From Candidatus Marinacidobacterales bacterium (GTDB lineage Bacteria; Acidobacteriota; Vicinamibacteria; Marinacidobacterales; SMYC01): a stretch of DNA of 64,000 bases. The stretch covers positions 352,001-416,000 of the forward strand of contig CBDCYI010000009.1 of assembly GCA_965224085.1 (NCBI GenBank). The letters are read 5' to 3'. The position numbers and the translations under genes are program-made. Of the stretch, positions 37,823 through 45,923 are shown piece by piece. Numbering within the stretch: position 1 is the first letter of the stretch; the number at the start of each line of letters is the position of its first letter. Below the pieces are notes generated by a model. That model saw nothing but the letters and a program-made list of their open reading frames with translations, made no database searches and was not told the origin of the DNA.

Positions 37823-38083
37823 ATGAACCACACGATTTTTCAGATTTTGTTGAGTCTCAATGACGATCCGCGAGACGCCGACGGCGTCCTCGAGGCGATG
37901 CGCACGCTCGGCGGCAAGCAGGCTGTGCCCGCGCTCGCCTCTTTCTACCGGGGGCTCAAAAAGGCCTCGGATTCCGGTTTCATCCGCGTGCTCGACGCCA
38001 CCAAAGGCCGGCGTCGGGGCCGGCCGCGCCAGCGCTACCAGATGACCCGATCGGGACGCTACGCGCTGCGTACGGAAGCCCGG
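37823..38083 (+). pseudogene. PadR-like wHTH regulator truncated by IS5
   Basis: FQILLSL, SFYRGLK, R.RYQMTRSGR.AL..EA ends at the IS left repeat. Confidence 0.65.
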
Positions 38084-39169
38084 TGCCTTGGTGCACAACT
38101 CGCGATCTCGGTCCACAATTGTCCTGTACTCGCGGATACGAGGTTCCCCATGAGCATTTCAAACGCACTCAGCGGAAGTATGTGAAGAAGGCCTATCGCG
38201 TGAGGAATTGGCGTGAATATGAGGCGGGTCTACGCAACCGCGGGAGCCTGACCGTCTGGATCTCGCTCACCGCCGGCAAGCTTGTGAACTGGGACGCGCC
38301 CCGGCCAAGGAGGAGGAAACCGGGCCGTCAACGCAAGTACTCGAACCACGCCATCGAGACGGCTGTCACCCTGGGCATGGTGTTTCATCTGTCGTCTAGG
38401 CAGAGCGAGGGATTGCTGCGATCGTTGTTCGCTCTGATGAAGCTAGACAATGATGTGCCCGATCACACCACGATCTCGAGGCGCAAGGCGAAGCTGGGTA
38501 AGGTCCCCTTCTACCAAGACAAGCAGAAGACGCCGTTGCACATCTTGATCGACAGCAGCGGTCTCGCTGTCCACGCCGGCCAGCTGCGCAGAGCACCAAA
38601 TAGCAGGGACTATCGCAAGCTCCATCTGTGTGTCGACGAGCAGAGTGGCGAAGTCGTCGCCGGCGAGCTGACGAGCAAAAGAGCCCGCGATTCATCGCGG
38701 GTTGCATCGCTTGTCAGACAGAGCGACAGTCCCATCTCATCGGCCAGAGCTGACACCGCATACGACGCCAGCGGCGTCTATGAGGCAATCGAGAATCACA
38801 GCGCTCATCGCTCGCCGAGGGTGCTGATACCGCCGCGCAAGGGCGCCCTGCTCGCATCGGGGCCGGCGAGCAGCCGACAGCGCAATCGCAACATTGCAGC
38901 ACAAGCTCGGCTCGGCAAACGAAAGTGGCACACAGAATCGGGCTACAGCAAACGGAGCAAAGTCGAGACAACGTTCCATCGCTACAAGGCTATCGTGGGC
39001 TCAGCGATGCGAGCGAGAGGGTTGGCGGCACAGAGAGTCGAGGCAAGGATCGGGTGCAAGATTCTCCACACCATGACGGCGCTCGGGATGCCTGATAGCG
39101 AGATGATCGGATGATGGGAGTCGGGGCCAAGCGAGCTCTCGGCCTCTATCGGAGTTGTGCACCAAGGCA
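38084..39169 (+). mobile_element. IS5 family (IS903-like) insertion sequence
   Basis: Perfect 18-bp terminal inverted repeats TGCCTTGGTGCACAACTC (38084-38101 and 39152-39169); no target duplication. Confidence 0.9.
38182..39114 (+). CDS. IS5 family DDE transposase
   Basis: NWREYE.GL..RGSLT.W, PDHTTISRR, IDSSG, ADTAYD, GY..RS.VE; true start may be ATG 38150 with a 1-nt indel. Confidence 0.88.
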   Translation: MKKAYRVRNWREYEAGLRNRGSLTVWISLTAGKLVNWDAPRPRRRKPGRQRKYSNHAIETAVTLGMVFHLSSRQSEGLLRSLFALMKLDNDVPDHTTISRRKAKLGKVPFYQDKQKTPLHILIDSSGLAVHAGQLRRAPNSRDYRKLHLCVDEQSGEVVAGELTSKRARDSSRVASLVRQSDSPISSARADTAYDASGVYEAIENHSAHRSPRVLIPPRKGALLASGPASSRQRNRNIAAQARLGKRKWHTESGYSKRSKVETTFHRYKAIVGSAMRARGLAAQRVEARIGCKILHTMTALGMPDSEMIG

Positions 39170-39586
39170 GCGCGCAAGCGACTTCAGGCATTGGTGTCGT
39201 GGCTCGAGCGAAACGGCTACGACGAAGCTTCCGGAAGCCTTCGTGAAGGGATGGAAGAGACACTCACGGTCGTGAAGCTCGCGCTGCCCGCCTTACTTCG
39301 CCAGTCTCTTGCCACGACGAACGCCATTGAGAATCTCAACGGAACCATTCGCAGAGTATCGAGAAACGTCAAGCGTTGGAAGAGTCCTTCCATGGTTCGC
39401 CGATGGACCGCTCTTGGCGTCGTCACCGCGCAGAAAGAGTTCCGGCGTATCAAAGGCTATCGCCATATGGGCGCTCTCGTTCACGCGCTTAGAAGCAAAC
39501 AGAAATCTCTTGACAGCGATGAGTTTGCTGCCTAAGAGTATTCACAGGTGCCGCCGCTACCCGACCAAATTCAACAGCGGCCGGGA
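39170..39586 (+). mobile_element. IS256 family remnant (transposase C-terminus to 39535 plus right end; last 7 nt displaced to 43513-43519)
   Basis: SLREGMEETLTV, TTNAIENLN, RNVKRW, FRRIKGY; end TTCAACAGCGGCCGGGA + CATCCCC. Confidence 0.85.
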
Positions 39587-39982
39587 GTGCGCTGGGCTAA
39601 CTGAAAGGAGCCTATGGGTGGAAGTCCAATCCGACCAAAAGTCGTAGCGGACAGGTCGGGACCGAGTCTTGCGGGCGTCGTGGCAACGCGGGGTCCGAAG
39701 CGTAGACAGGGGTCGTGCAGGGTGTGTGAATGTAGCCTCGAAATGCTGAATATCGCGGAAGGCCGAGTTGATTCCCGTCAATGAAGGCAGCATGTGGGCC
39801 ATCGCTATCGCGAGATGGTTACGCTCCGCCGGGGTCGTGGACCACATCACGTACGAAGAGTTCCTTTCGGGACCCAGGAGGTCCGGCCGGGTCCATCGGA
39901 ATGGTCACCGATGGGGGCGTCGCGCAAGGGAAAACCGAAGCGCGGTGCTGAGCTGAGGCCGGAAGTCGGACCGATTCATAGT

Positions 39983-42015
39983 GTGTGCTGGGCAGCGTCC
40001 AGATCAGGAAGGTTGAAGTCCCTCTGGTGCTCGGATGAGGAGCGCCATATCCAAAAGCGGGGGTAACGCCTCGCTGGCCGGGGAACGCGGATAAGGAGAA
40101 CCCTAAACGGGCACGAAGTTGGAAACGATGGCTACTGCCAAGGGGATGTACCTAAGTTCGGGTTCTGTCCACTGGACAACTGGAGGACAGGGTGTCCACC
40201 GCGAGGTGGAATCTGAAGGGTATGCGGAGCAGTACCGGGCCGTAATCGAGGGGGCGACCCCGTTGATGAACCGGTCGGCCAAAGGTGGGGCAAGGTCGAG
40301 CCTGCACTATGGAGGCGAAGGCGTTCTCATTCACCCACCGAATCAAGGTGTTTGCGGACGGCACGGTACGGAAGATCTGGACGTGACCCCAGGAGGGCTC
40401 ATTGGGTTCCCGAGTGGCGTCGGGATAAGCGACCCTATAAGCGAGAGCGAAATGGGAAGTGAAGCCGGGTGAGTCGTCGGACAGCCCAATAGTACCTGAA
40501 GCGCGGTGAAAGTCGTGTGATCGAGAGATCGGCAGCCGAGTGGGCTGGGGAAGGGGGCTGGCAAAGGTGGTTGGTGACAACAAGGATGACAGACGAGTAA
40601 GGGCGATGACGCGGATAAGTTCCTTTAGTGAAAGACCCAGAAGTGATCGTCCGAGGAAACTGTCGGCCTGGTTGAACCCAACGGGTGAGAGGAAGGTCCA
40701 CTCTCTGGTGGACAAGATATACAAGCGGAAGAACTTGGAGCTGGCCTGGAACCGAGTGAAGCGGAACAAGGGTGCCGGTGGCATCGATGGACAAACTCTG
40801 GACGAGTTTGAGGAGCAGCTTGATGCGCACCTCAACCGACTCCATGAGGAGCTCAAGACCGATGCCTATCGTCCACTACCTGTTCGGCAGAAACTCATTC
40901 CCAAGGCTGGACAACCGGGAAAGTTCCGCCCGCTCGGCATTCCGGCCGTTTATGACCGCGTGTGTCAGCAGGCACTGCAGAACCGGTTGGAACCGATCTT
41001 CGAGCAGGTGTTCGATGCCGCCAGCTTCGGATATCGACGAGGAAGATCGACAAAGGATGCTTTACGCAAGATCTGGCAAGAGATCGAAGAGGGTTACGAG
41101 TGGATCGTGGATGCGGATCTTTCCAATTTCTTTGGGACTGTGGACCATGAGAAGCTCCTCGCTCTTGTTGCCAAGCGAGTGTCGGATGGTCGCGTCCTTC
41201 GTCTTATTCGCAGCATGCTCAAAGCAGGCTGCATGGCGGAGGGGAGACGGCTCCCGACCGAGCAAGGTGCACCGCAAGGCGGTGTGGTCTCACCGATCTT
41301 AAGTAACGTCCTTTTGACTCCGTTTGATCGGGAGATGCGCCATCGTGGCTATCGCCTGACGCGGTATGCCGACGACTGGGTCGTGACATGCTGCACCAAG
41401 GCAGAGGCCCAGAAGGTGCTGGCCGAAGCCCGGATGATCCTTACGACGTTGGGTGTAACCTTGAACGTGGAGAAGACTCGTATCGTTCACGTTGCACACG
41501 GCTTCGAGTTCTTGGGATACAAGATCAAGCGGGGTAGTCGCCCTTTGGCCCTACCCTCACACAAGATCCGTACGGGTGTCCGCAAGGGTGACCTGTACGC
41601 GTACCCTCGACAGAAGTCGCTCCAGCACTTCAAGGATCAGATTCGGCGACGGACCTGTCGCAAAGCTCCTGTGAGTACGCAGCAGCTAATCGACGAGATC
41701 AACCCGGTTATTCGCGGTTGGGGTCTTTACTATCATAAAGCTCACGTCCGCAAGCTCTTCGCGCGTCTCGATCGTTGGATCCTGCGACGTATCTGGTCGC
41801 ATCGGTTCAAACGCTGGCGCTGTCGGGGGTGGAAGCAGCTCCCGGAGCGTCAGCTCTACGATGAGATGGGCCTCGTACGCTTTGTCTTCCTGATTCCTTC
41901 CATCAAGCCGCGATGAATAATCCAACCTTTGTGAAAGCCGGATACGGGAAAACTGTATGTCCGGTTTGAGCGGCGGACGGGGGTCAGCGCTGCGGTGCGC
42001 CCCCTCCGACCCGAC
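39983..42015 (+). mobile_element. Group II intron B nested in the ribozyme of intron A
   Basis: 5' GTGTG; domain V AAGCCGGATACGGGAAAACTGTATGTCCGGTTT near 41935; 3' end CCCGAC; EBS1 ACTATG (40306-40311) complementary to CATAGT (39977-39982). Confidence 0.9.
40606..41916 (+). CDS. ltrA: Group II intron reverse transcriptase/maturase of intron B, no endonuclease domain
   Basis: KVHSLVDK, RPLGIP, PQGGVVSP, YADD, FLGY, INPVIRGW. Confidence 0.93.
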   Translation: MTRISSFSERPRSDRPRKLSAWLNPTGERKVHSLVDKIYKRKNLELAWNRVKRNKGAGGIDGQTLDEFEEQLDAHLNRLHEELKTDAYRPLPVRQKLIPKAGQPGKFRPLGIPAVYDRVCQQALQNRLEPIFEQVFDAASFGYRRGRSTKDALRKIWQEIEEGYEWIVDADLSNFFGTVDHEKLLALVAKRVSDGRVLRLIRSMLKAGCMAEGRRLPTEQGAPQGGVVSPILSNVLLTPFDREMRHRGYRLTRYADDWVVTCCTKAEAQKVLAEARMILTTLGVTLNVEKTRIVHVAHGFEFLGYKIKRGSRPLALPSHKIRTGVRKGDLYAYPRQKSLQHFKDQIRRRTCRKAPVSTQQLIDEINPVIRGWGLYYHKAHVRKLFARLDRWILRRIWSHRFKRWRCRGWKQLPERQLYDEMGLVRFVFLIPSIKPR

Positions 42016-42042
42016 ACTGAGGAAGCTATCGAAGGCAACGAG

Positions 42043-43422
42043 ATGGTGGAGGGAAGGGATCGGCCTGGAGGGAACCCACGGGAGAGGGCTAAGGTCCGGA
42101 CACAGCGCCGGGTCGCCTTACCGCCAAATCTCACGCGGGTGAACGAAGCAGCGAAGCGAGATAGAAAGGCTCGGTTCACTGCGTTGCTGCATCACGTGGA
42201 TCACGAAGCGCTCTATCGAGCGTTTCGTCGGTTGAAGCGCAGCGCAAGCGCTGGTGTCGACGGAGAGACTGTCGCCGATTACGAGAAGAACTTCGTGAGC
42301 AACATCAAGGATCTTTGCTCGCGGGTACACGCCGGTCGCTACCGACCACTACCGGTGCGGCGCGTGTACATTCCTAAGTCGGATGGCGGAAAGCGCCCTC
42401 TTGGCATCCCCGCACTGGAAGACAAGATTGTCCAAGGAGCGGTAGCCGAGGTTTTGAGCGCCGTCTACGAAGTCGATTTCATCGGGTTCTCGTACGGGTT
42501 TCGGCCCGGACGGAGCCCGCACCAAGCGTTGCACGCGCTCCACACCGCGCTCATGACGCAACGCGTGAACTGGGTTCTCGACGCGGACATCCGCAAGTTC
42601 TTCGACTCGGTGGACCACGAGTGGTTGATGCGGATGCTTTCGCACCGGGTCGCCGACAAACGCATCCTTCGACTCATCCGTCAGTGGTTGCGAGCCGGCG
42701 TACTGGAGAAAGGAGAGTGGAGCGAGACAACTGAAGGGACACCGCAAGGGGCAGGTGTGAGCCCGCTCTTGGCTAACGTCTTTCTGCACTACGTTCTAGA
42801 TCTGTGGGTTCATCGATGGCGCCGGCTCGAAGCACAAGGCCGTATTTCCATCGTGCGATACGCTGACGACTTCGTCATGGGCTTCCAGCATCGGACCGAT
42901 GCCAGCAGGATGATGAGAGCGCTCAAGGAGCGACTAGCCCGATTCGGGCTTGCGCTCCACGAGAACAAGACCCGTTTGCTCGAGTTCGGGAGATTACCTT
43001 CCTTGTCACGCGAGCAACGGGGCCTTCGGCGGTGTGCGACGTTCGCTTTCCTGGGTTTCACTCATTATTGTGGGAGAACCCGCGATGGCCGTTTCGTCGT
43101 GAAGCGCAAAACGCAGAGCCAGCGGCTACGAGCCAAACTCAAGTCGCTACGGCTTCGCGCGAAGCAACGTATGCATGCTCCAGTCGCCGTCCAGCATCGC
43201 TGGCTTTGCCAGGTGCTGCGCGGTCACTACGCGTACTACGGACTTCCCAGCAACATCCGCTCTCTCCAATCCTTTTCTGAGGAGGTGACACGGTTGTGGT
43301 TTCGAAGCCTTCGTCGGCGGAGTCAGCGCCGAATGACCTGGCCTCGTTTTCACTTGTTGTTGGAGCGCTTTCCCCTACCAGTCCCTCACCTCACTCCGTC
43401 CCGACTACCTTGCCTTGTCTGA
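42043..43422 (+). CDS. ltrA: Group II intron reverse transcriptase/maturase of intron A, no endonuclease domain
   Basis: RFTALLHH, RPLGIPALEDK, GTPQG, YADD, FLGFTH, LRGHYAYY; start must be 3' of 42015 and is uncertain. Confidence 0.92.
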   Translation: MVEGRDRPGGNPRERAKVRTQRRVALPPNLTRVNEAAKRDRKARFTALLHHVDHEALYRAFRRLKRSASAGVDGETVADYEKNFVSNIKDLCSRVHAGRYRPLPVRRVYIPKSDGGKRPLGIPALEDKIVQGAVAEVLSAVYEVDFIGFSYGFRPGRSPHQALHALHTALMTQRVNWVLDADIRKFFDSVDHEWLMRMLSHRVADKRILRLIRQWLRAGVLEKGEWSETTEGTPQGAGVSPLLANVFLHYVLDLWVHRWRRLEAQGRISIVRYADDFVMGFQHRTDASRMMRALKERLARFGLALHENKTRLLEFGRLPSLSREQRGLRRCATFAFLGFTHYCGRTRDGRFVVKRKTQSQRLRAKLKSLRLRAKQRMHAPVAVQHRWLCQVLRGHYAYYGLPSNIRSLQSFSEEVTRLWFRSLRRRSQRRMTWPRFHLLLERFPLPVPHLTPSRLPCLV

Positions 43423-43532
43423 TTTCGGGTATACCTTCAGGAGGAGCCGAGTGCGGGAAAGCCGCACGCTCGGATCTGTGAGGGCGAAAGCCGAATGGCT
43501 GAGCTACTCGACCATCCCCGGTTCGACCCAAA

Positions 43533-43649
43533 TCACGGTATTTCATATTTCACCTGCTTGGCTGTAAAGCCGGCATCCACGGTCACCAGTGTGCCGGTCA
43601 TATAGCTGGCATCAGCTGAAGCCAAAAATACAACAACACGAGCAATTTC
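43533..43649 (-). pseudogene. SDR oxidoreductase C-terminal fragment
   Basis: Manual translation EIARVVVFLASADASYMTGTLVTVDAGFTA, cut at an IS end. Confidence 0.75.
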
Positions 43650-43850
43650 GGGGATATCCTGAATCTAGTTGAAATCGGTGAGTGACTCCGTTCAGATCGT
43701 CGGTCAAAGCTGGCGATCAAAAAGAAAGGAGCCACCCGGTGAGAGCAGATACGAAGAAGAGAAAGAATGCAACACAGATGCTGAGGGCGACGCAGGAGCA
43801 AGAGTGGTGGGCGGATCAAGTTGTGCATGTTTACCTCTTCTTTCACTTGA
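43650..43850 (+). mobile_element. Left-end remnant of a second IS256-like element
   Basis: GGGGATATCCTGAATCTAGTTGAA matches, as an inverted repeat, the rebuilt right end in spacing and conserved positions; followed by an AAGGAG RBS; right boundary approximate. Confidence 0.55.
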
Positions 43851-44081
43851 CGGACGTGGTACAAATGCGCGCTGACCAAGAACTTACGAGAAACTTCTTG
43901 AAGTAGTTTCTGAGCTCCAGCGTGTTCTTGGCGAACGTGACGGCAACGATGAGTTTCCCTTGTCAAGCCTCAGAAGAAATGACACTATCGGCCCCGAGGC
44001 GCGGAGAGTCCCCACGAGCCTTCGCCCCTGAATAGCAATCCATAGAACAGAGCCCTTTTCTGGGGAGAAAGGCGGGTTAAG

Positions 44082-45923
44082 GTGTTCAACGACCGTTTCA
44101 TTCGCCGTCGTGCGCTGATTGCATGGGCGTCGGTTCCTTTCATCATGTTCGCCGCGCCGCCGCTGGCCCAGCCAGGACAGCAGGCTTGGAGTCCGGTCGA
44201 CATACCCGGTCCCGATGAACATCCTGCCGAGTTGATCCAGCTCACAGAGGAGTTTCGCACCATCCTCGGATGGGGAAGCGGGGTTCCCGATTACGCTGGG
44301 ACAGTGGGGCGTCAAAAGGAGAAGCTCCCCGAGTTCCGTGCTCGCCTGGAATCACTGGACACCTCCGACTGGTCGGTTCACGAGAAGATCGACTACCTGC
44401 TGCTGCGCTCTGAGATGGACCGCCTCGAGTTCGACCTTTACGTCTGGCGACAGACAAGCCGCAACCCGAGCTTTTACGTTGCTCAGGCGATTCGGAACGT
44501 GGGCCGGCACTTGACCGGCGGCAGGCGCATGTACGTGCCGGAGCTGATGCCGTACACCAAGAAGCGTGCTCAGACCATCCTGCAAGCGCTGGCCGACACC
44601 CCAAAGTTCGTGGCCCAAGGTCGTCGGAACCTCACGGAGATGGTTCCGGCGCTGGCCGACATGGCGCTGCGGAATCCCGGGAGCTCAATCGATACCGATG
44701 ATCTGGACAACATCGTGGTGAACTACCGCAAGTGGGCCGAGGTCACTGCCGAGCATTTTCCCGAGCCCGAGGCGAGTCAACTTGTGTCCGCTGCAGAGGA
44801 GGCGGCACGACATTTGCTCGAGTTCGGCAACTGGCTCAAGGAAAACCGCGACGACATGCCCGGGAAGTACTACATCTCCGAGGAGGCTATTGACTGGTAT
44901 CACCGCCACGTTTTCTTGATGCCCTACACAACCGACGAACTCAGGCTGATGGCGGAGATGGAGCGCGCTCGCTCGCTTTCATACCTGCAGTTCGAGATGC
45001 ACAAGAACCGGAATCTGCCCAAGATCGGGCCGGCGGAGACGGTCGATGAGTACACAGCCTGGGATGACGAGACCGAGCTGATCATCCGGCGATGGTATAC
45101 AGAGAGCGGCCAGGACATCCTCAGCGACCGGGAGTACATGCTCAACAAAGATGTTCGAGTTGAGGAAGCCGTCCTCCTGCCTCCGTTCGGCCGGCTGGCG
45201 TTTCCTTACCAGGAGAAGCCAGATACCTGGCGAATCTTGATCGTACCCGATGATCACTGGCGCGCCAAAGATTCGAACATGGGATTCCGAACTGACCCCG
45301 GGGTGCTGTCCGCCCACGAATGGTGGCCCGGCCATACCTATGAAAGGGAGGTGCACCGGCGCAACCCATGCCCGATCCGCCGCGGTCATCGCGATAATGC
45401 ACACAGCCAGGGATGGTGCTTCTATCTCGCTGAGGAGCTTCTGGTAGCCATGGACTTTCCATTCGTGAGAGGCCCGCGTGCGCGGGAACTCCCGTACATC
45501 AACATGCTCCAGCGAGCCGAGCGAGTCTCCATGGGACTCGACCTGCTCACGGGCCAGATCACTCCCGAGGAGGCGTACATTGCTTTCCGCAAAAACGTCC
45601 CTCTCCTGGGATCGGGCCTGGGTGCAAGCGAATACGAAGCCTTTGAAGAGATGGGGGGAGTGCTGGTCCGGGGCCTGGATCACTGCCAAACCGGGAAGCT
45701 TCAGATCTTCAAGTTGTTAGCGGATCGCAAGATGCAGCTGAAGGAGAACTTCGACCTCAAGGAGTTTCACGATCAGGTCATCAGCCTTGGATCGGTGCCG
45801 ATTTCTCTCCTGAGGTGGGAAATCGCACGGCTGGACGATGAGGTCAAAGAGCTTTGGGAGCCGGTAAGGTTGGCTTCGGTCCTGCAGACGTTAGCGGAGA
45901 CGGATGGCGGCGAGAGCCAGTAG
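44082..45923 (+). CDS. DUF885 family protein, copy 1, secreted
   Basis: HEWWPGH, QGWCFY, FDLKEFHDQVISLGSVP. Confidence 0.85.
   Translation: MFNDRFIRRRALIAWASVPFIMFAAPPLAQPGQQAWSPVDIPGPDEHPAELIQLTEEFRTILGWGSGVPDYAGTVGRQKEKLPEFRARLESLDTSDWSVHEKIDYLLLRSEMDRLEFDLYVWRQTSRNPSFYVAQAIRNVGRHLTGGRRMYVPELMPYTKKRAQTILQALADTPKFVAQGRRNLTEMVPALADMALRNPGSSIDTDDLDNIVVNYRKWAEVTAEHFPEPEASQLVSAAEEAARHLLEFGNWLKENRDDMPGKYYISEEAIDWYHRHVFLMPYTTDELRLMAEMERARSLSYLQFEMHKNRNLPKIGPAETVDEYTAWDDETELIIRRWYTESGQDILSDREYMLNKDVRVEEAVLLPPFGRLAFPYQEKPDTWRILIVPDDHWRAKDSNMGFRTDPGVLSAHEWWPGHTYEREVHRRNPCPIRRGHRDNAHSQGWCFYLAEELLVAMDFPFVRGPRARELPYINMLQRAERVSMGLDLLTGQITPEEAYIAFRKNVPLLGSGLGASEYEAFEEMGGVLVRGLDHCQTGKLQIFKLLADRKMQLKENFDLKEFHDQVISLGSVPISLLRWEIARLDDEVKELWEPVRLASVLQTLAETDGGESQ

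Follow-up and report, generated by a model that had tools for sequence, protein, structure and literature searches.

Positions 39587-43512 of the window, by which we mean the whole 64,000-nt stretch of Candidatus Marinacidobacterales DNA that was analysed, are confirmed to be a twintron, two nested group II introns at the inverted repeat of an IS256-family insertion sequence (IS). It is very probable (about 0.88 by our estimate) that the locus is a nest of mobile elements on three levels, in which an IS256-family IS holds an outer intron and the outer intron an inner one, and we consider it just as probable that a lineage of class E introns homes to the conserved core of IS256-family ends in several phyla. 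The features of the region are as follows.

38084..39169, + strand: IS of another kind (DDE_Tnp_1_5/DDE_Tnp_1; Pfam and genome BLAST)
39170..39586, + strand: IS256-family IS, terminal 417 nt, the 5' exon of the outer intron (PF00872 match at 39155-39535)
39587..39982, + strand: outer intron, 5' segment with domains I-III and the start of IV (RF02005, E=1.3e-40)
39983..42015, + strand: inner group II intron, 2033 nt (Rfam, Pfam, genome copies)
42016..43512, + strand: outer intron, 3' segment with the remaining domain IV, the RT ORF and D5/D6 (Rfam, Pfam)
43513..43519, + strand: CATCCCC, last 7 nt of the right inverted repeat of the IS, the 3' exon (12/12 3' ends)
43533..43649, - strand: C-terminal remnant of a short-chain dehydrogenase (PF13561, E=3.4e-07)
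43650..43826, + strand: second repeated element, its tip and first ~178 nt (2 copies)

The host IS and the outer intron

Only the final 417 nt of the host IS are left in the window, this copy being cut off by the IS at 38084-39169, which carries a DDE_Tnp_1-type transposase ORF (38083-39114) and is present at about 50 copies in this genome. The remainder (39170-39586) comprises the transposase C-terminus (stop codon at 39535) and, at ~39546-39586, the right inverted repeat without its tip, and is 96-100% identical to complete IS copies. A complete copy encodes a 431-aa transposase matching PF00872 (Transposase_mut, E=4.5e-42); with the introns excluded the IS is ~1460 bp long, and its inverted repeats of ~44-47 bp differ by a 3-nt indel and in the spacer. 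Two ISs filled at both ends are flanked by the 8-bp target duplications CTCACGGA and CCCGGCAG. IS256-family elements are ~1.3-1.5 kb long, have terminal inverted repeats and make target duplications of 8-9 bp, and the Mutator-type DDE transposase, the repeats and the 8-bp duplications mark the host IS as a genuine member of this family.

The element boundaries given in the original prediction are right: the 5' exon (...TTCAACAGCGGCCGGGA) ends at 39586, the intron sequence runs from GTGCG at 39587 to CTCGAC at 43512, and CATCCCC follows at 43513-43519, beyond which the sequence is different at each copy. The end at 43650-43673, with which this site had been compared as another IS256-like end, does resemble one (16/24 positions) and its site is empty (CAGGA^TATCCCC, where ^ is the insertion site), but its IS256 nature is not upheld: it is the tip of a ~178-bp repeat, and no transposase follows 43650-43826. 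A search of the surroundings (43500-44100) found no inverted repeat. Between these two IS-type ends, outside the element, the dehydrogenase remnant (43533-43649) has been caught.

The outer intron (39587-39982 plus 42016-43512, 1893 nt) starts with GUGCG. Rfam places its domain I at 39621-39844 (RF02005, 140.9 bits, E=1.3e-40) and its D5/D6 at 43442-43512 (RF00029, 53.2 bits), the latter match ending exactly at 43512. The outer RT ORF (42043-43422, 459 aa) has an intact YADD and matches RVT_1 (E=4.6e-39), its only Pfam domain at E<=0.001; the two RT sequences of the twintron contain RYADDF and RYADDW. Pfam gives no endonuclease or DNA-binding domain in the outer RT, in agreement with the earlier description of the intron as endonuclease-less. 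The RT is ~67-70% identical to those of the Sinorhizobium meliloti pRmeGR4b intron and other rhizobial copies, so that by sequence the outer intron appears class E-like, a label based on likeness to one literature-named locus and not on a tree of reference classes.

The proposed EBS1, a UCCCG loop at 39774-39778 on a hairpin with stems UUGA/UCAA, is indeed complementary to IBS1, CGGGA at 39582-39586. The two covary, with CGGGA/UCCCG here, AUGGGA/UCCCAU and AGGGA/UCCCU in two relatives (L010 and L012, respectively), and many further unrelated pairs, still complementary, in distant relatives. The C at +1 is probably IBS3, and the conserved TTCAAC block (-17 to -12) probably contributes to targeting. 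For EBS2, a complementarity scan of 44 aligned relatives found the best register in only 6/44, and no single register suits both target types; one candidate loop, UGCUGAAU at 39744-39751, pairs with -18 to -11 at 7/8 positions and was rejected, as relatives of the TACACCA type are left unmatched. A joint skipping the outer intron (39586 to 43513) was not seen in contigs, three RNA libraries and one other run, a result neutral on splicing. The joint of 39982 to 42016 does occur in RNA-library contigs; the same joint exists as DNA, so it is neutral as well. Loose ends at 39586 that run on into CATCCCC and then into different flanking sequence come from empty copies of the IS at other places.

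Filled and empty IS ends

The ends of the outer intron in this genome (11/11 at 5' and 12/12 at 3') all show CGGGA^CATCCCC, in left and right repeats alike, and all 11/11 5' ends are preceded by AAATTCAACA-N6-GGGA; this sharing of flanks is far beyond chance. Thirteen IS ends are readable, 11/13 filled and 2/13 empty. Three ISs have an intron at both ends, another is filled at its left end and empty at its right, and in the IS copies on C4 and C5 a twintron occupies one end and just the outer intron the other. As the target is found in both inverted repeats, an IS provides a pair of sites facing opposite ways, and the outer intron always points outward from the IS. The rejoining of the exons that had been predicted can be seen in the genome itself, where the rebuilt 24-mer is uninterrupted at C4 895324-895347 and C7 303-326. 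Two near-matching sites are also empty, one (C9 533903-533914) with the same -13 to +7 but lacking TTCAAC and the other (C9 650047) reading TTCAAC...TGGGA^CATCCCC, so that the target rules are not fully defined. The intron sense strand lies on the G-rich strand in 4/11 copies and on the other in 7/11, with a GC skew (<=0.025 absolute) too weak to speak of strand bias.

Exact empty right ends of the same IS were found in 10/30 other genomes (1-102 in each; reversed control, 0), and the 15/15 IS ends that could be read across nine loci of relatives were empty. The outer intron was absent from the relatives' genomes save for one 534-nt fragment in a congener, which is 100% identical and is followed by CATCCCC.

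Probable history of the nest and its possible effect on the IS

The nest was very probably built in three steps. An IS256-family IS of ~1.46 kb would have inserted, making an 8-bp duplication; an endonuclease-less class E-like intron would then have retrohomed into the terminal repeat, 7 bp from the tip, with EBS1 UCCCG paired to CGGGA at -5 to -1; and domain IV of this intron would in turn have been invaded by the homing of another, at a site shortly before the RT gene. The outer intron would have arrived here recently and have filled nearly all ends of the IS. We infer that retrohoming is the mechanism and that priming takes place at replication forks, and an invaded IS, its repeat parted from the 7-bp tip, would be blocked from transposing.

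It is conceivable, though we regard it as doubtful, that the class E lineage is specialised as a hyperparasite of the IS256 family, freezing each IS that it enters and itself parasitised in domain IV. The core that it recognises would consist of a TTCAAC or TACACCA block, a free spacer and GGGA^C, at a constant 7 bp from the tip. Because this repeat core is conserved by the transposase, an intron reading it could track the IS256 family across phyla, and with the tip cut from the repeat and the IS frozen, it could naturally restrain the expansion of IS256.

It may instead be, and this seems to us no more than equally tentative, that the intron is a neutral passenger for which the IS end is a harmless repeated address, leaving the IS unimpaired, for example if the IS was already inactive or if intact copies keep supplying ends. 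Consistent with this, the four full-length ISs in the genome all have intact 431-aa transposase ORFs, the intron-free relatives span the whole range of 1-102 exact right ends, so that copy number is not tied to the intron, and bacterial introns generally reside in other mobile DNA, according to the available text of PMC4424553. Yet there are indirect arguments against it: 1.9-3.9 kb now separate the 7-bp tip, where cleavage must take place, from the remaining repeat, none of the four full-length ISs (0/4) has two intact ends, and RmInt1 in ISRm2011-2 is said to block the spread of its host (PMC5894124, available text). The intron as the cause of a low IS copy number was considered and rejected, several intron-free relatives having few copies too; four of these (G001, G002, G004 and G025) have just 1-3 exact empty right ends, and the comparison therefore lends no support to IS suppression.

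Probable homing to IS ends within the genome and across phyla

That the intron copies spread passively with transposition or duplication of the IS, and not by site-specific homing, is very improbable. Intron and IS are always found together in this genome, but relatives without the intron have plenty of this IS, at up to 100% identity, the two ends of one IS can differ in intron state, and both repeats are invaded at the same position in inverted orientation. Furthermore, the intron copies, which differ at 2 positions in total, both within one copy, are more uniform than the IS copies (mutually 95.6-99.9% identical), and the IS256-family hosts of diverged relatives have transposases just 24-28% identical.

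The view of IS256 ends as recurring landing sites is borne out in other organisms as it is within this genome. Close relatives, defined by an RT identity of at least 66%, consistently lie at IS256-family ends in either orientation; the flanks here are a genuine IS256-family end, and the targets of the close relatives are not unrelated. Their visible 5' exons fit [TC][TA]CA[AC]C-N(9-12)-GGA in 20/26 cases, 6/26 being without the strict motif; three of those six are TTCCACCAC variants. An IS256-family transposase lies <=300 nt upstream in 14/19 loci with at least 400 nt of upstream sequence, six on the same strand as the intron and eight on the opposite one; with at least 1300 nt upstream it is found in 9/12, the loci L009, L112 and L100 having none. 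Downstream, as a control, the count is 0/9. More distant relatives gave neither signal, with the motif in 0/12 and the transposase in 0/8 at 58-66% RT identity, and 0/45 and 0/37, respectively, below 58%; adjacency for all relatives below 66% is thus 0/45.

The 3' exons of close relatives begin with C in 19/20, and those of the TACACCA type fit C[AG][CT]G[AG][CT]C in 15/18, followed by unrelated sequence. In Mesorhizobium, the left repeat at one locus (L013) is unoccupied and the 8-bp duplication CTTAGCCC is present. At two loci of S. meliloti, one of them that of pRmeGR4b, the sequence reads ...CTACACCACtccctGGGA^intron^CACGATC, and the similarity between the two ends after +7. In the RT tree the IS-end introns (22/22) fall within one 37-row group (SH-aLRT 100), and the IS-end label requires 4 changes, where shuffled labels average 19.5 and 0/500 shuffles were as low.

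Chance use of a generic short motif, GGGA^C, in place of IS-end recognition is less credible still: EBS1 pairing covers just 5 nt and the genome has dozens of non-IS 12-mers within one mismatch of CGGGACATCCCC, but none of those places is filled, all filled sites have TTCAAC-N6-CGGGA^CATCCCC, and the close relatives have a transposase on the upstream side (14/19) and never downstream (0/9).

The inner intron

The inner intron begins with GUGUG and interrupts domain IV of the outer intron, leaving 27 nt between its own 3' end and the outer RT start. Its RT ORF (40540/40606-41916) has RVT_1 (E=1e-42), GIIM and YADD, with no HNH in Pfam; its D5/D6 at 41933-42015 scores 41.3 bits against RF00029 (gathering score 40), and its D1 match to RF02001, 27.9 bits, is below the gathering score of 32. 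A candidate EBS1, ACUAUG at 40306-40311, is complementary to CAUAGU at 39977-39982. The boundaries are set by four full outer-only copies, in which 39982 joins 42016; the inner intron is thus complete, and the outer intron is also found without it, as befits a twintron. Seven copies of the inner intron occur in the genome, six within outer introns and one within a third intron, and its hosts are of two intron types, RF02005 and RF02003. The original prediction had taken 39587-43512 for a single intron, and the stretch is unbroken from GUGCG to the D5/D6 ending at 43512, but the outer-only and inner-only copies refute one long 3.9-kb group II intron: there are two RT ORFs, two D5/D6 matches and two D1 matches, 39983-42015 is exactly absent from four complete copies, and the 2033-nt piece lies alone inside a different intron at C9 853583-855615.

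Comparison with known systems

Homing into the inverted repeats of an IS has already been published for RmInt2 in ISRm17, and the claim that this locus is a clear new example is well supported. RmInt2 from S. meliloti GR4, as described in the available text of Martinez-Rodriguez et al. (2014; PMC4615759), is a class D intron with a 419-aa IEP that homes into the ISRm17 inverted repeats, with mobility demonstrated by assay; its copies are mutually identical and other strains lack it, which the authors took as a sign of recent acquisition, and they pointed out that the targets are doubled, one always being on the lagging-strand template. ISRm17 belongs to the ISNCY family (PMC10194956). Like RmInt2, the outer intron uses the two repeats of one IS, left and right. 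Unlike the RmInt2 of that text, it appears class E-like, has a 459-aa IEP and is known from sequence alone; its host belongs to the IS256 family, and the IS-end habit extends across an intron lineage in several phyla.

S.me.I4, a disrupted intron on pRmeGR4b, was called class E by Toro et al. (PMC5894124, available text), and IIE ribozymes have been treated by Nagy et al. (2013; PMC3753933). As in S.me.I4 and the rhizobial copies, the outer intron has no endonuclease domain and its EBS1 is in a domain I hairpin, and as with the S. meliloti copies just 7 nt lie between it and the end of an IS256-family IS. It differs from the rhizobial relatives in its host IS (transposase 24-28% identical) and in its target, TTCAAC and not TACACCA, and from S.me.I4 in occurring as a twintron. 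We found no statement in the searchable papers that class E introns target IS256 ends. RmInt1, a class D intron, resembles the outer intron in being endonuclease-less with a homing site within the IS, and has one target per ISRm2011-2; in the available text of PMC5894124, inverted-repeat targeting is described only for RmInt2.

Twintrons are known from Methanosarcina acetivorans and other bacteria (Dai & Zimmerly, 2003, via the available text of PMC4424553). As far as that text describes them, these nests share with ours site-specific homing of intron into intron, outside housekeeping genes, into a perpetual homing site. They differ in that the inner site here is in domain IV upstream of the RT start and in two host intron types, and in that the entire nest lies within an IS end.

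In summary, the locus adds to introns homing into IS inverted repeats a second case, independent of the first and much broader, with an intron class and IS family unlike those of RmInt2 and ISRm17. Empty, outer-only and twintron ends form a natural series in one genome, and sister genomes have the IS intron-free. With the offset fixed at 7 bp and EBS1 covarying with IBS1, the target rules can be tested directly, and the intron lineage could supply endonuclease-less targetrons with a defined target. IS256 elements matter to the genome plasticity of many bacteria; if it is true that the intron disables its host, such introns would have a role in IS256 dynamics.

Two nested introns in one IS end

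The 5' exon ends ...AAATTCAACAGCGGCCGGGA at 39586, GTGCG opens the element at 39587, and the element closes ...GCTACTCGAC at 43512, followed by CATCCCC. The original prediction had read this as a single, endonuclease-less group II intron. Two domain I matches, two D5/D6 matches and two reverse transcriptase (RT) ORFs were found in this stretch, which therefore holds two introns: 39587-43512 is a twintron, in which the outer intron (39587-39982 and 42016-43512) carries the inner one (39983-42015) in its domain IV. The missing endonuclease was correctly foreseen, the outer RT ORF carrying RVT_1 alone.

Features of the twintron and of the adjoining insertion
38084-39169: DDE_Tnp_1-type IS, about 50 near-identical genomic copies; cuts the IS256-family copy in the window
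39621-39844: group II domain I, outer intron (Rfam RF02005, E=1.3e-40)
40195-40382: group II domain I, inner intron (Rfam RF02001, weak match)
40540-41916: inner RT ORF (RVT_1 and GIIM, without endonuclease domain)
41933-42015: D5/D6, first of two (Rfam)
41995/42043-43422: outer RT ORF (RVT_1 only, without endonuclease domain)
43442-43512: D5/D6, second of two (Rfam)

The outer RT shares 67-70% identity with copies on rhizobial plasmids, among them a two-piece match on Sinorhizobium meliloti GR4 pRmeGR4b, where Toro et al. locate S.me.I4, a disrupted class E intron (PMC5894124), and for this reason we call the outer intron, by its sequence, class E-like. Inner and outer RTs share 34% identity, and the best named relatives of the inner RT (58-65%) are from Paraburkholderia, Bradyrhizobium, Microvirga, Cupriavidus and Alicyclobacillus plasmids.

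Copies were counted in the 6.87-Mb assembly by BLAST with the region as query and by exact scans for the four intron ends, which returned 11 outer 5' ends and 12 outer 3' ends. Eight outer introns are complete, four of 3926 nt and four of 1893 nt, the shorter ones missing exactly 39983-42015. Six of the seven inner copies occupy the identical place within outer introns; the seventh (contig C9, 853583-855615), the only one outside an outer intron, is hosted, again in domain IV, by a third intron that differs in type (C9 about 853178-856090; locus L006, 2678-5590) and has an RF02003 match (E=1.7e-27), a weak D5/D6 match and an internally deleted remnant of an RT ORF. Both host sites share ...GUCGG...UAGU/A (a slash marks insertion points throughout), and the inner hairpin loop ACUAUG (40306-40311) is complementary to CAUAGU (39977-39982). 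A metagenome contig (L136, 2840-3010) holds a diverged twintron with the homologous junction ...CCGACCCGAC/ACTGATGAAGCC..., its outer RT 73% and the C-terminus of its inner-like RT 57% identical to those described here; locus L094 represents the empty form of the domain IV site that holds the inner-like intron in L136.

The host element and its occupied ends

The host is a genuine IS256-family IS. The 431-aa protein of complete copies matches Transposase_mut (E=4.5e-42), and the IS, introns excluded, is about 1460 bp long. The repeats at its left and right ends, of about 44-47 bp, differ by a 3-nt indel and in the spacer at -11 to -6 (-1 being the last 5' exon base and +1 the first 3' exon base). 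Duplications of 8 bp (CTCACGGA and CCCGGCAG) flank two ISs with introns at both ends, which places the IS termini at GGGGATG...CATCCCC. The window keeps only the last 417 nt of a copy. Several intron and IS256 copies elsewhere in the genome are likewise interrupted at recurrent positions (42399-42404 is one example), a pattern that suggests more IS insertions and rearrangements. A short-chain dehydrogenase remnant (last 38 codons, 43533-43649, minus strand; PF13561, E=3.4e-07) is stranded between two IS-type ends.

The central idea of the original prediction, that the intron is targeted to IS256 ends, held across the whole assembly: the IS repeat precedes 11/11 outer 5' ends, and CATCCCC, then unrelated sequence, follows 12/12 outer 3' ends. 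The junction can be read at 13 IS ends, of which 11 are filled (right 4/6, left 7/7); both empty ones are right ends (C4 895324-895347 and C7 303-326). An additional left end (C4 1360216) retains only about 4 nt of the intron start. At the filled end C11 195321 the neighbouring insertion of a 246-bp repeat has left just 17 nt of IS; this MITE-like repeat (C11 195339-195585; about 10 copies) went into the IS256 repeat, 17 nt upstream of where the intron starts. None of the four full-length ISs has two intact ends, and all four have an intact 431-aa ORF. The intron copies show 2 variable positions in all, both within one copy, and the IS copies are 95.6-99.9% identical among themselves. GC skew is weak and gives no readable strand bias of intron insertion, and contigs from public sequencing runs contained no informative splice joint.

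Mosaic spacers at -10, -8 and -6 were seen in 4/11 filled ends (window 39577, 39579 and 39581; other filled ends, C11 1218035/1219482, C4 256433 and C5 2151630). They are of three kinds: a right end with left-type letters, a left end with right-type letters, or a recombinant. The spacer is canonical in 14/15 empty ends read in relatives and in both empty ends here, and the introns are nearly identical. The mosaics may stem from conversion of a short stretch of 5' exon as the intron inserts, or from gene conversion involving intron copies in inverted orientation.

Target recognition

The proposed pairing of the EBS1 loop with the repeat was borne out: the hairpin loop UCCCG (39774-39778) is complementary to CGGGA at -5 to -1, and loop and 5' exon of the individual introns covary across the family, the -5 pair shifting from C-G to U-A to A-U within the clade of introns at IS ends. 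Position +1 is a near-invariant C, as a putative contact of the IBS3 type would predict. Within each target type, positions -17 to -12 form a conserved block, and the spacer up to GGGA varies freely. Complementarity searches among relatives did not locate EBS2; EBS2-IBS2 pairing is reported to be dispensable for self-splicing of IIE introns (PMC3753933). This genome also has two unfilled near-targets. The first (C9 533903-533914, minus strand) shares every target base between -13 and +7 and lacks TTCAAC; the second (C9 650047-650058, plus strand), a diverged IS256-like end reading TTCAACATGGGCTGGGA/CATCCCC, has TTCAAC but UGGGA. These two sites fit a need for both the TTCAAC and the CGGGA blocks.

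Related introns in other organisms

The outer RT family proved very large in the homologue search. We sampled 79 loci from named genomes (query, an alignment of 23 proteins) and 80 metagenome loci (query, the outer RT protein), and located the 5' ends of introns by an nhmmer profile search run iteratively (164 hits in 150/159 loci). Introns were kept if GTGCG or GTACG stood at the predicted start, which gave a set of 87; GAAAGCG- and GAGAGCG-type starts were excluded, as were three close relatives, L094 and L121 (contigs beginning inside the intron) and L124 (non-canonical start).

IS-end motif, [TC][TA]CA[AC]C-N(9-12)-GGA, in visible 5' exons, and IS256-family transposase within 300 nt upstream, by RT identity to the outer intron
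At least 66%: 28 introns; motif 20/26; transposase 14/19 (loci with at least 400 nt of upstream sequence), 9/12 (loci with at least 1300 nt)
58-66%: 13 introns; motif 0/12; transposase 0/8
Below 58%: 46 introns; motif 0/45; transposase 0/37

The expectation that exons of close RT homologues would be IS256 ends was thus upheld at 66% identity and above, with an IS256-family transposase upstream in 14/19. The non-motif exons of this group include three TTCCACCAC variants and one that misses the motif by one substitution. The adjacent transposase is on the intron's strand at 6 loci and on the opposite strand at 8; downstream flanks of the same group, taken as control, gave an IS256-family transposase in 0/9. 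These transposases are just 24-28% identical to that of the host IS. L013, a Mesorhizobium locus, has nothing inserted in the opposite repeat, and its duplication of 8 bp (CTTAGCCC) shows that the IS tip falls 7 nt past the intron. Two S. meliloti plasmid loci share ...CTACACCACtccctGGGA/intron/CACGATC and diverge from +8. Among 24 clade members examined, 19/20 with a 3' end found have C at +1, and 15/18 TACACCA-type members read C[AG][CT]G[AG][CT]C, then unrelated sequence. In an RT tree of 83 rows, 22/22 IS-end introns fall within one 37-row group (SH-aLRT 100); the IS-end label requires 4 changes (shuffled mean 19.5; 0/500 shuffles as low), a test of clustering rather than of the number of independent events, since kin share labels. 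Judged from these sequences, the IS-end habit extends across an intron lineage.

Two other putative target types emerged. Within the IS-end clade, a subclade (L118 3680 and L129 105, also L137 and L125) has 5' exons that resemble group II domain V (GAGCCGGGTGCGGG/), and its members appear to home into D5 of other introns; the host at L118 is itself an IS-end intron. Eight loci, mostly Acidobacteriota with 50-56% RT identity (L068, L079, L054, L043, L035, L082, L036 and L040), have EBS1 loops like AGGAG and 5' exons ending ...CTCCT/; in L054, a Shine-Dalgarno sequence plus ATG is what the exon reads as on the complementary strand. Antisense insertion at ribosome-binding sites seems to be the habit of this clade.

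The same IS in relatives' genomes

Across 31 genomes, this one included, the IS half of the junction query matched in 15 others, at up to 100% identity, and the matches end at the insertion point; one unpublished genome (G027) gave faint matches only. All 15 ends read in nine relatives' loci are empty. The right ends read ...AACAGCGGCCGGGA/CATCCCC, except for one variant tip (CATCTCC, L176), and the left ends ...AACATCCGGCGGGA/CATCCCC, except for one variant spacer. Counts of the exact empty right-end 24-mer in ten relatives are 102, 96, 69, 16, 9, 8, 3, 2, 2 and 1; this genome has 2 (reversed-sequence control, 0 in every genome). The outer intron was not found in the other 30 genomes beyond one 534-nt fragment in a congener (100% identity, 5' side cut off, CATCCCC still after the 3' end) and distant matches, which reach about 66-69% over a few hundred bases or 76-88% over stretches of 40-66 nt. 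Since the intron is found here while the relatives' IS ends are empty, we read it as a probable recent arrival, its targets here nearly saturated. Copy number is neutral on IS suppression, because four intron-free relatives also have 1-3 exact right ends. Three genomes from other genera and families of the order (G021, G023 and G016) have 69-102 exact right ends, and their IS is up to 100% identical over 417 nt; this points to recent IS spread between lineages.

Discussion

RmInt2 is reported to home into both inverted repeats of ISRm17, with retrohoming assays done (PMC4615759, PMC5894124), and the rationale, both IS inverted repeats serving as targets, is the same here. RmInt2 belongs to class D whereas the outer intron is class E-like, and ISRm17 is assigned to the ISNCY family (PMC10194956) and the host IS to IS256; the present case therefore parallels that system without being identical to it. 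Introns homing into other introns are likewise already known, as are twintrons in bacteria (PMC4424553). The full-text literature covered, including PMC3552965, contained no statement of class E targeting of IS256-family ends; Toro et al. (2002), Dai and Zimmerly (2002), Simon et al. (2008) and the supplements of PMC4615759 lie outside that coverage.

Homing and splicing of the intron here are what its sequence would predict. The outer intron may also disable the IS, as the original prediction held: it parts the tip from the remainder of the repeat, and the published view of RmInt1 in ISRm2011-2 points the same way. In summary, the strategy itself has already been published, and the finding is real: the element is richer than first described, a twintron that nearly saturates both ends of its IS and shares its habit with a whole lineage.
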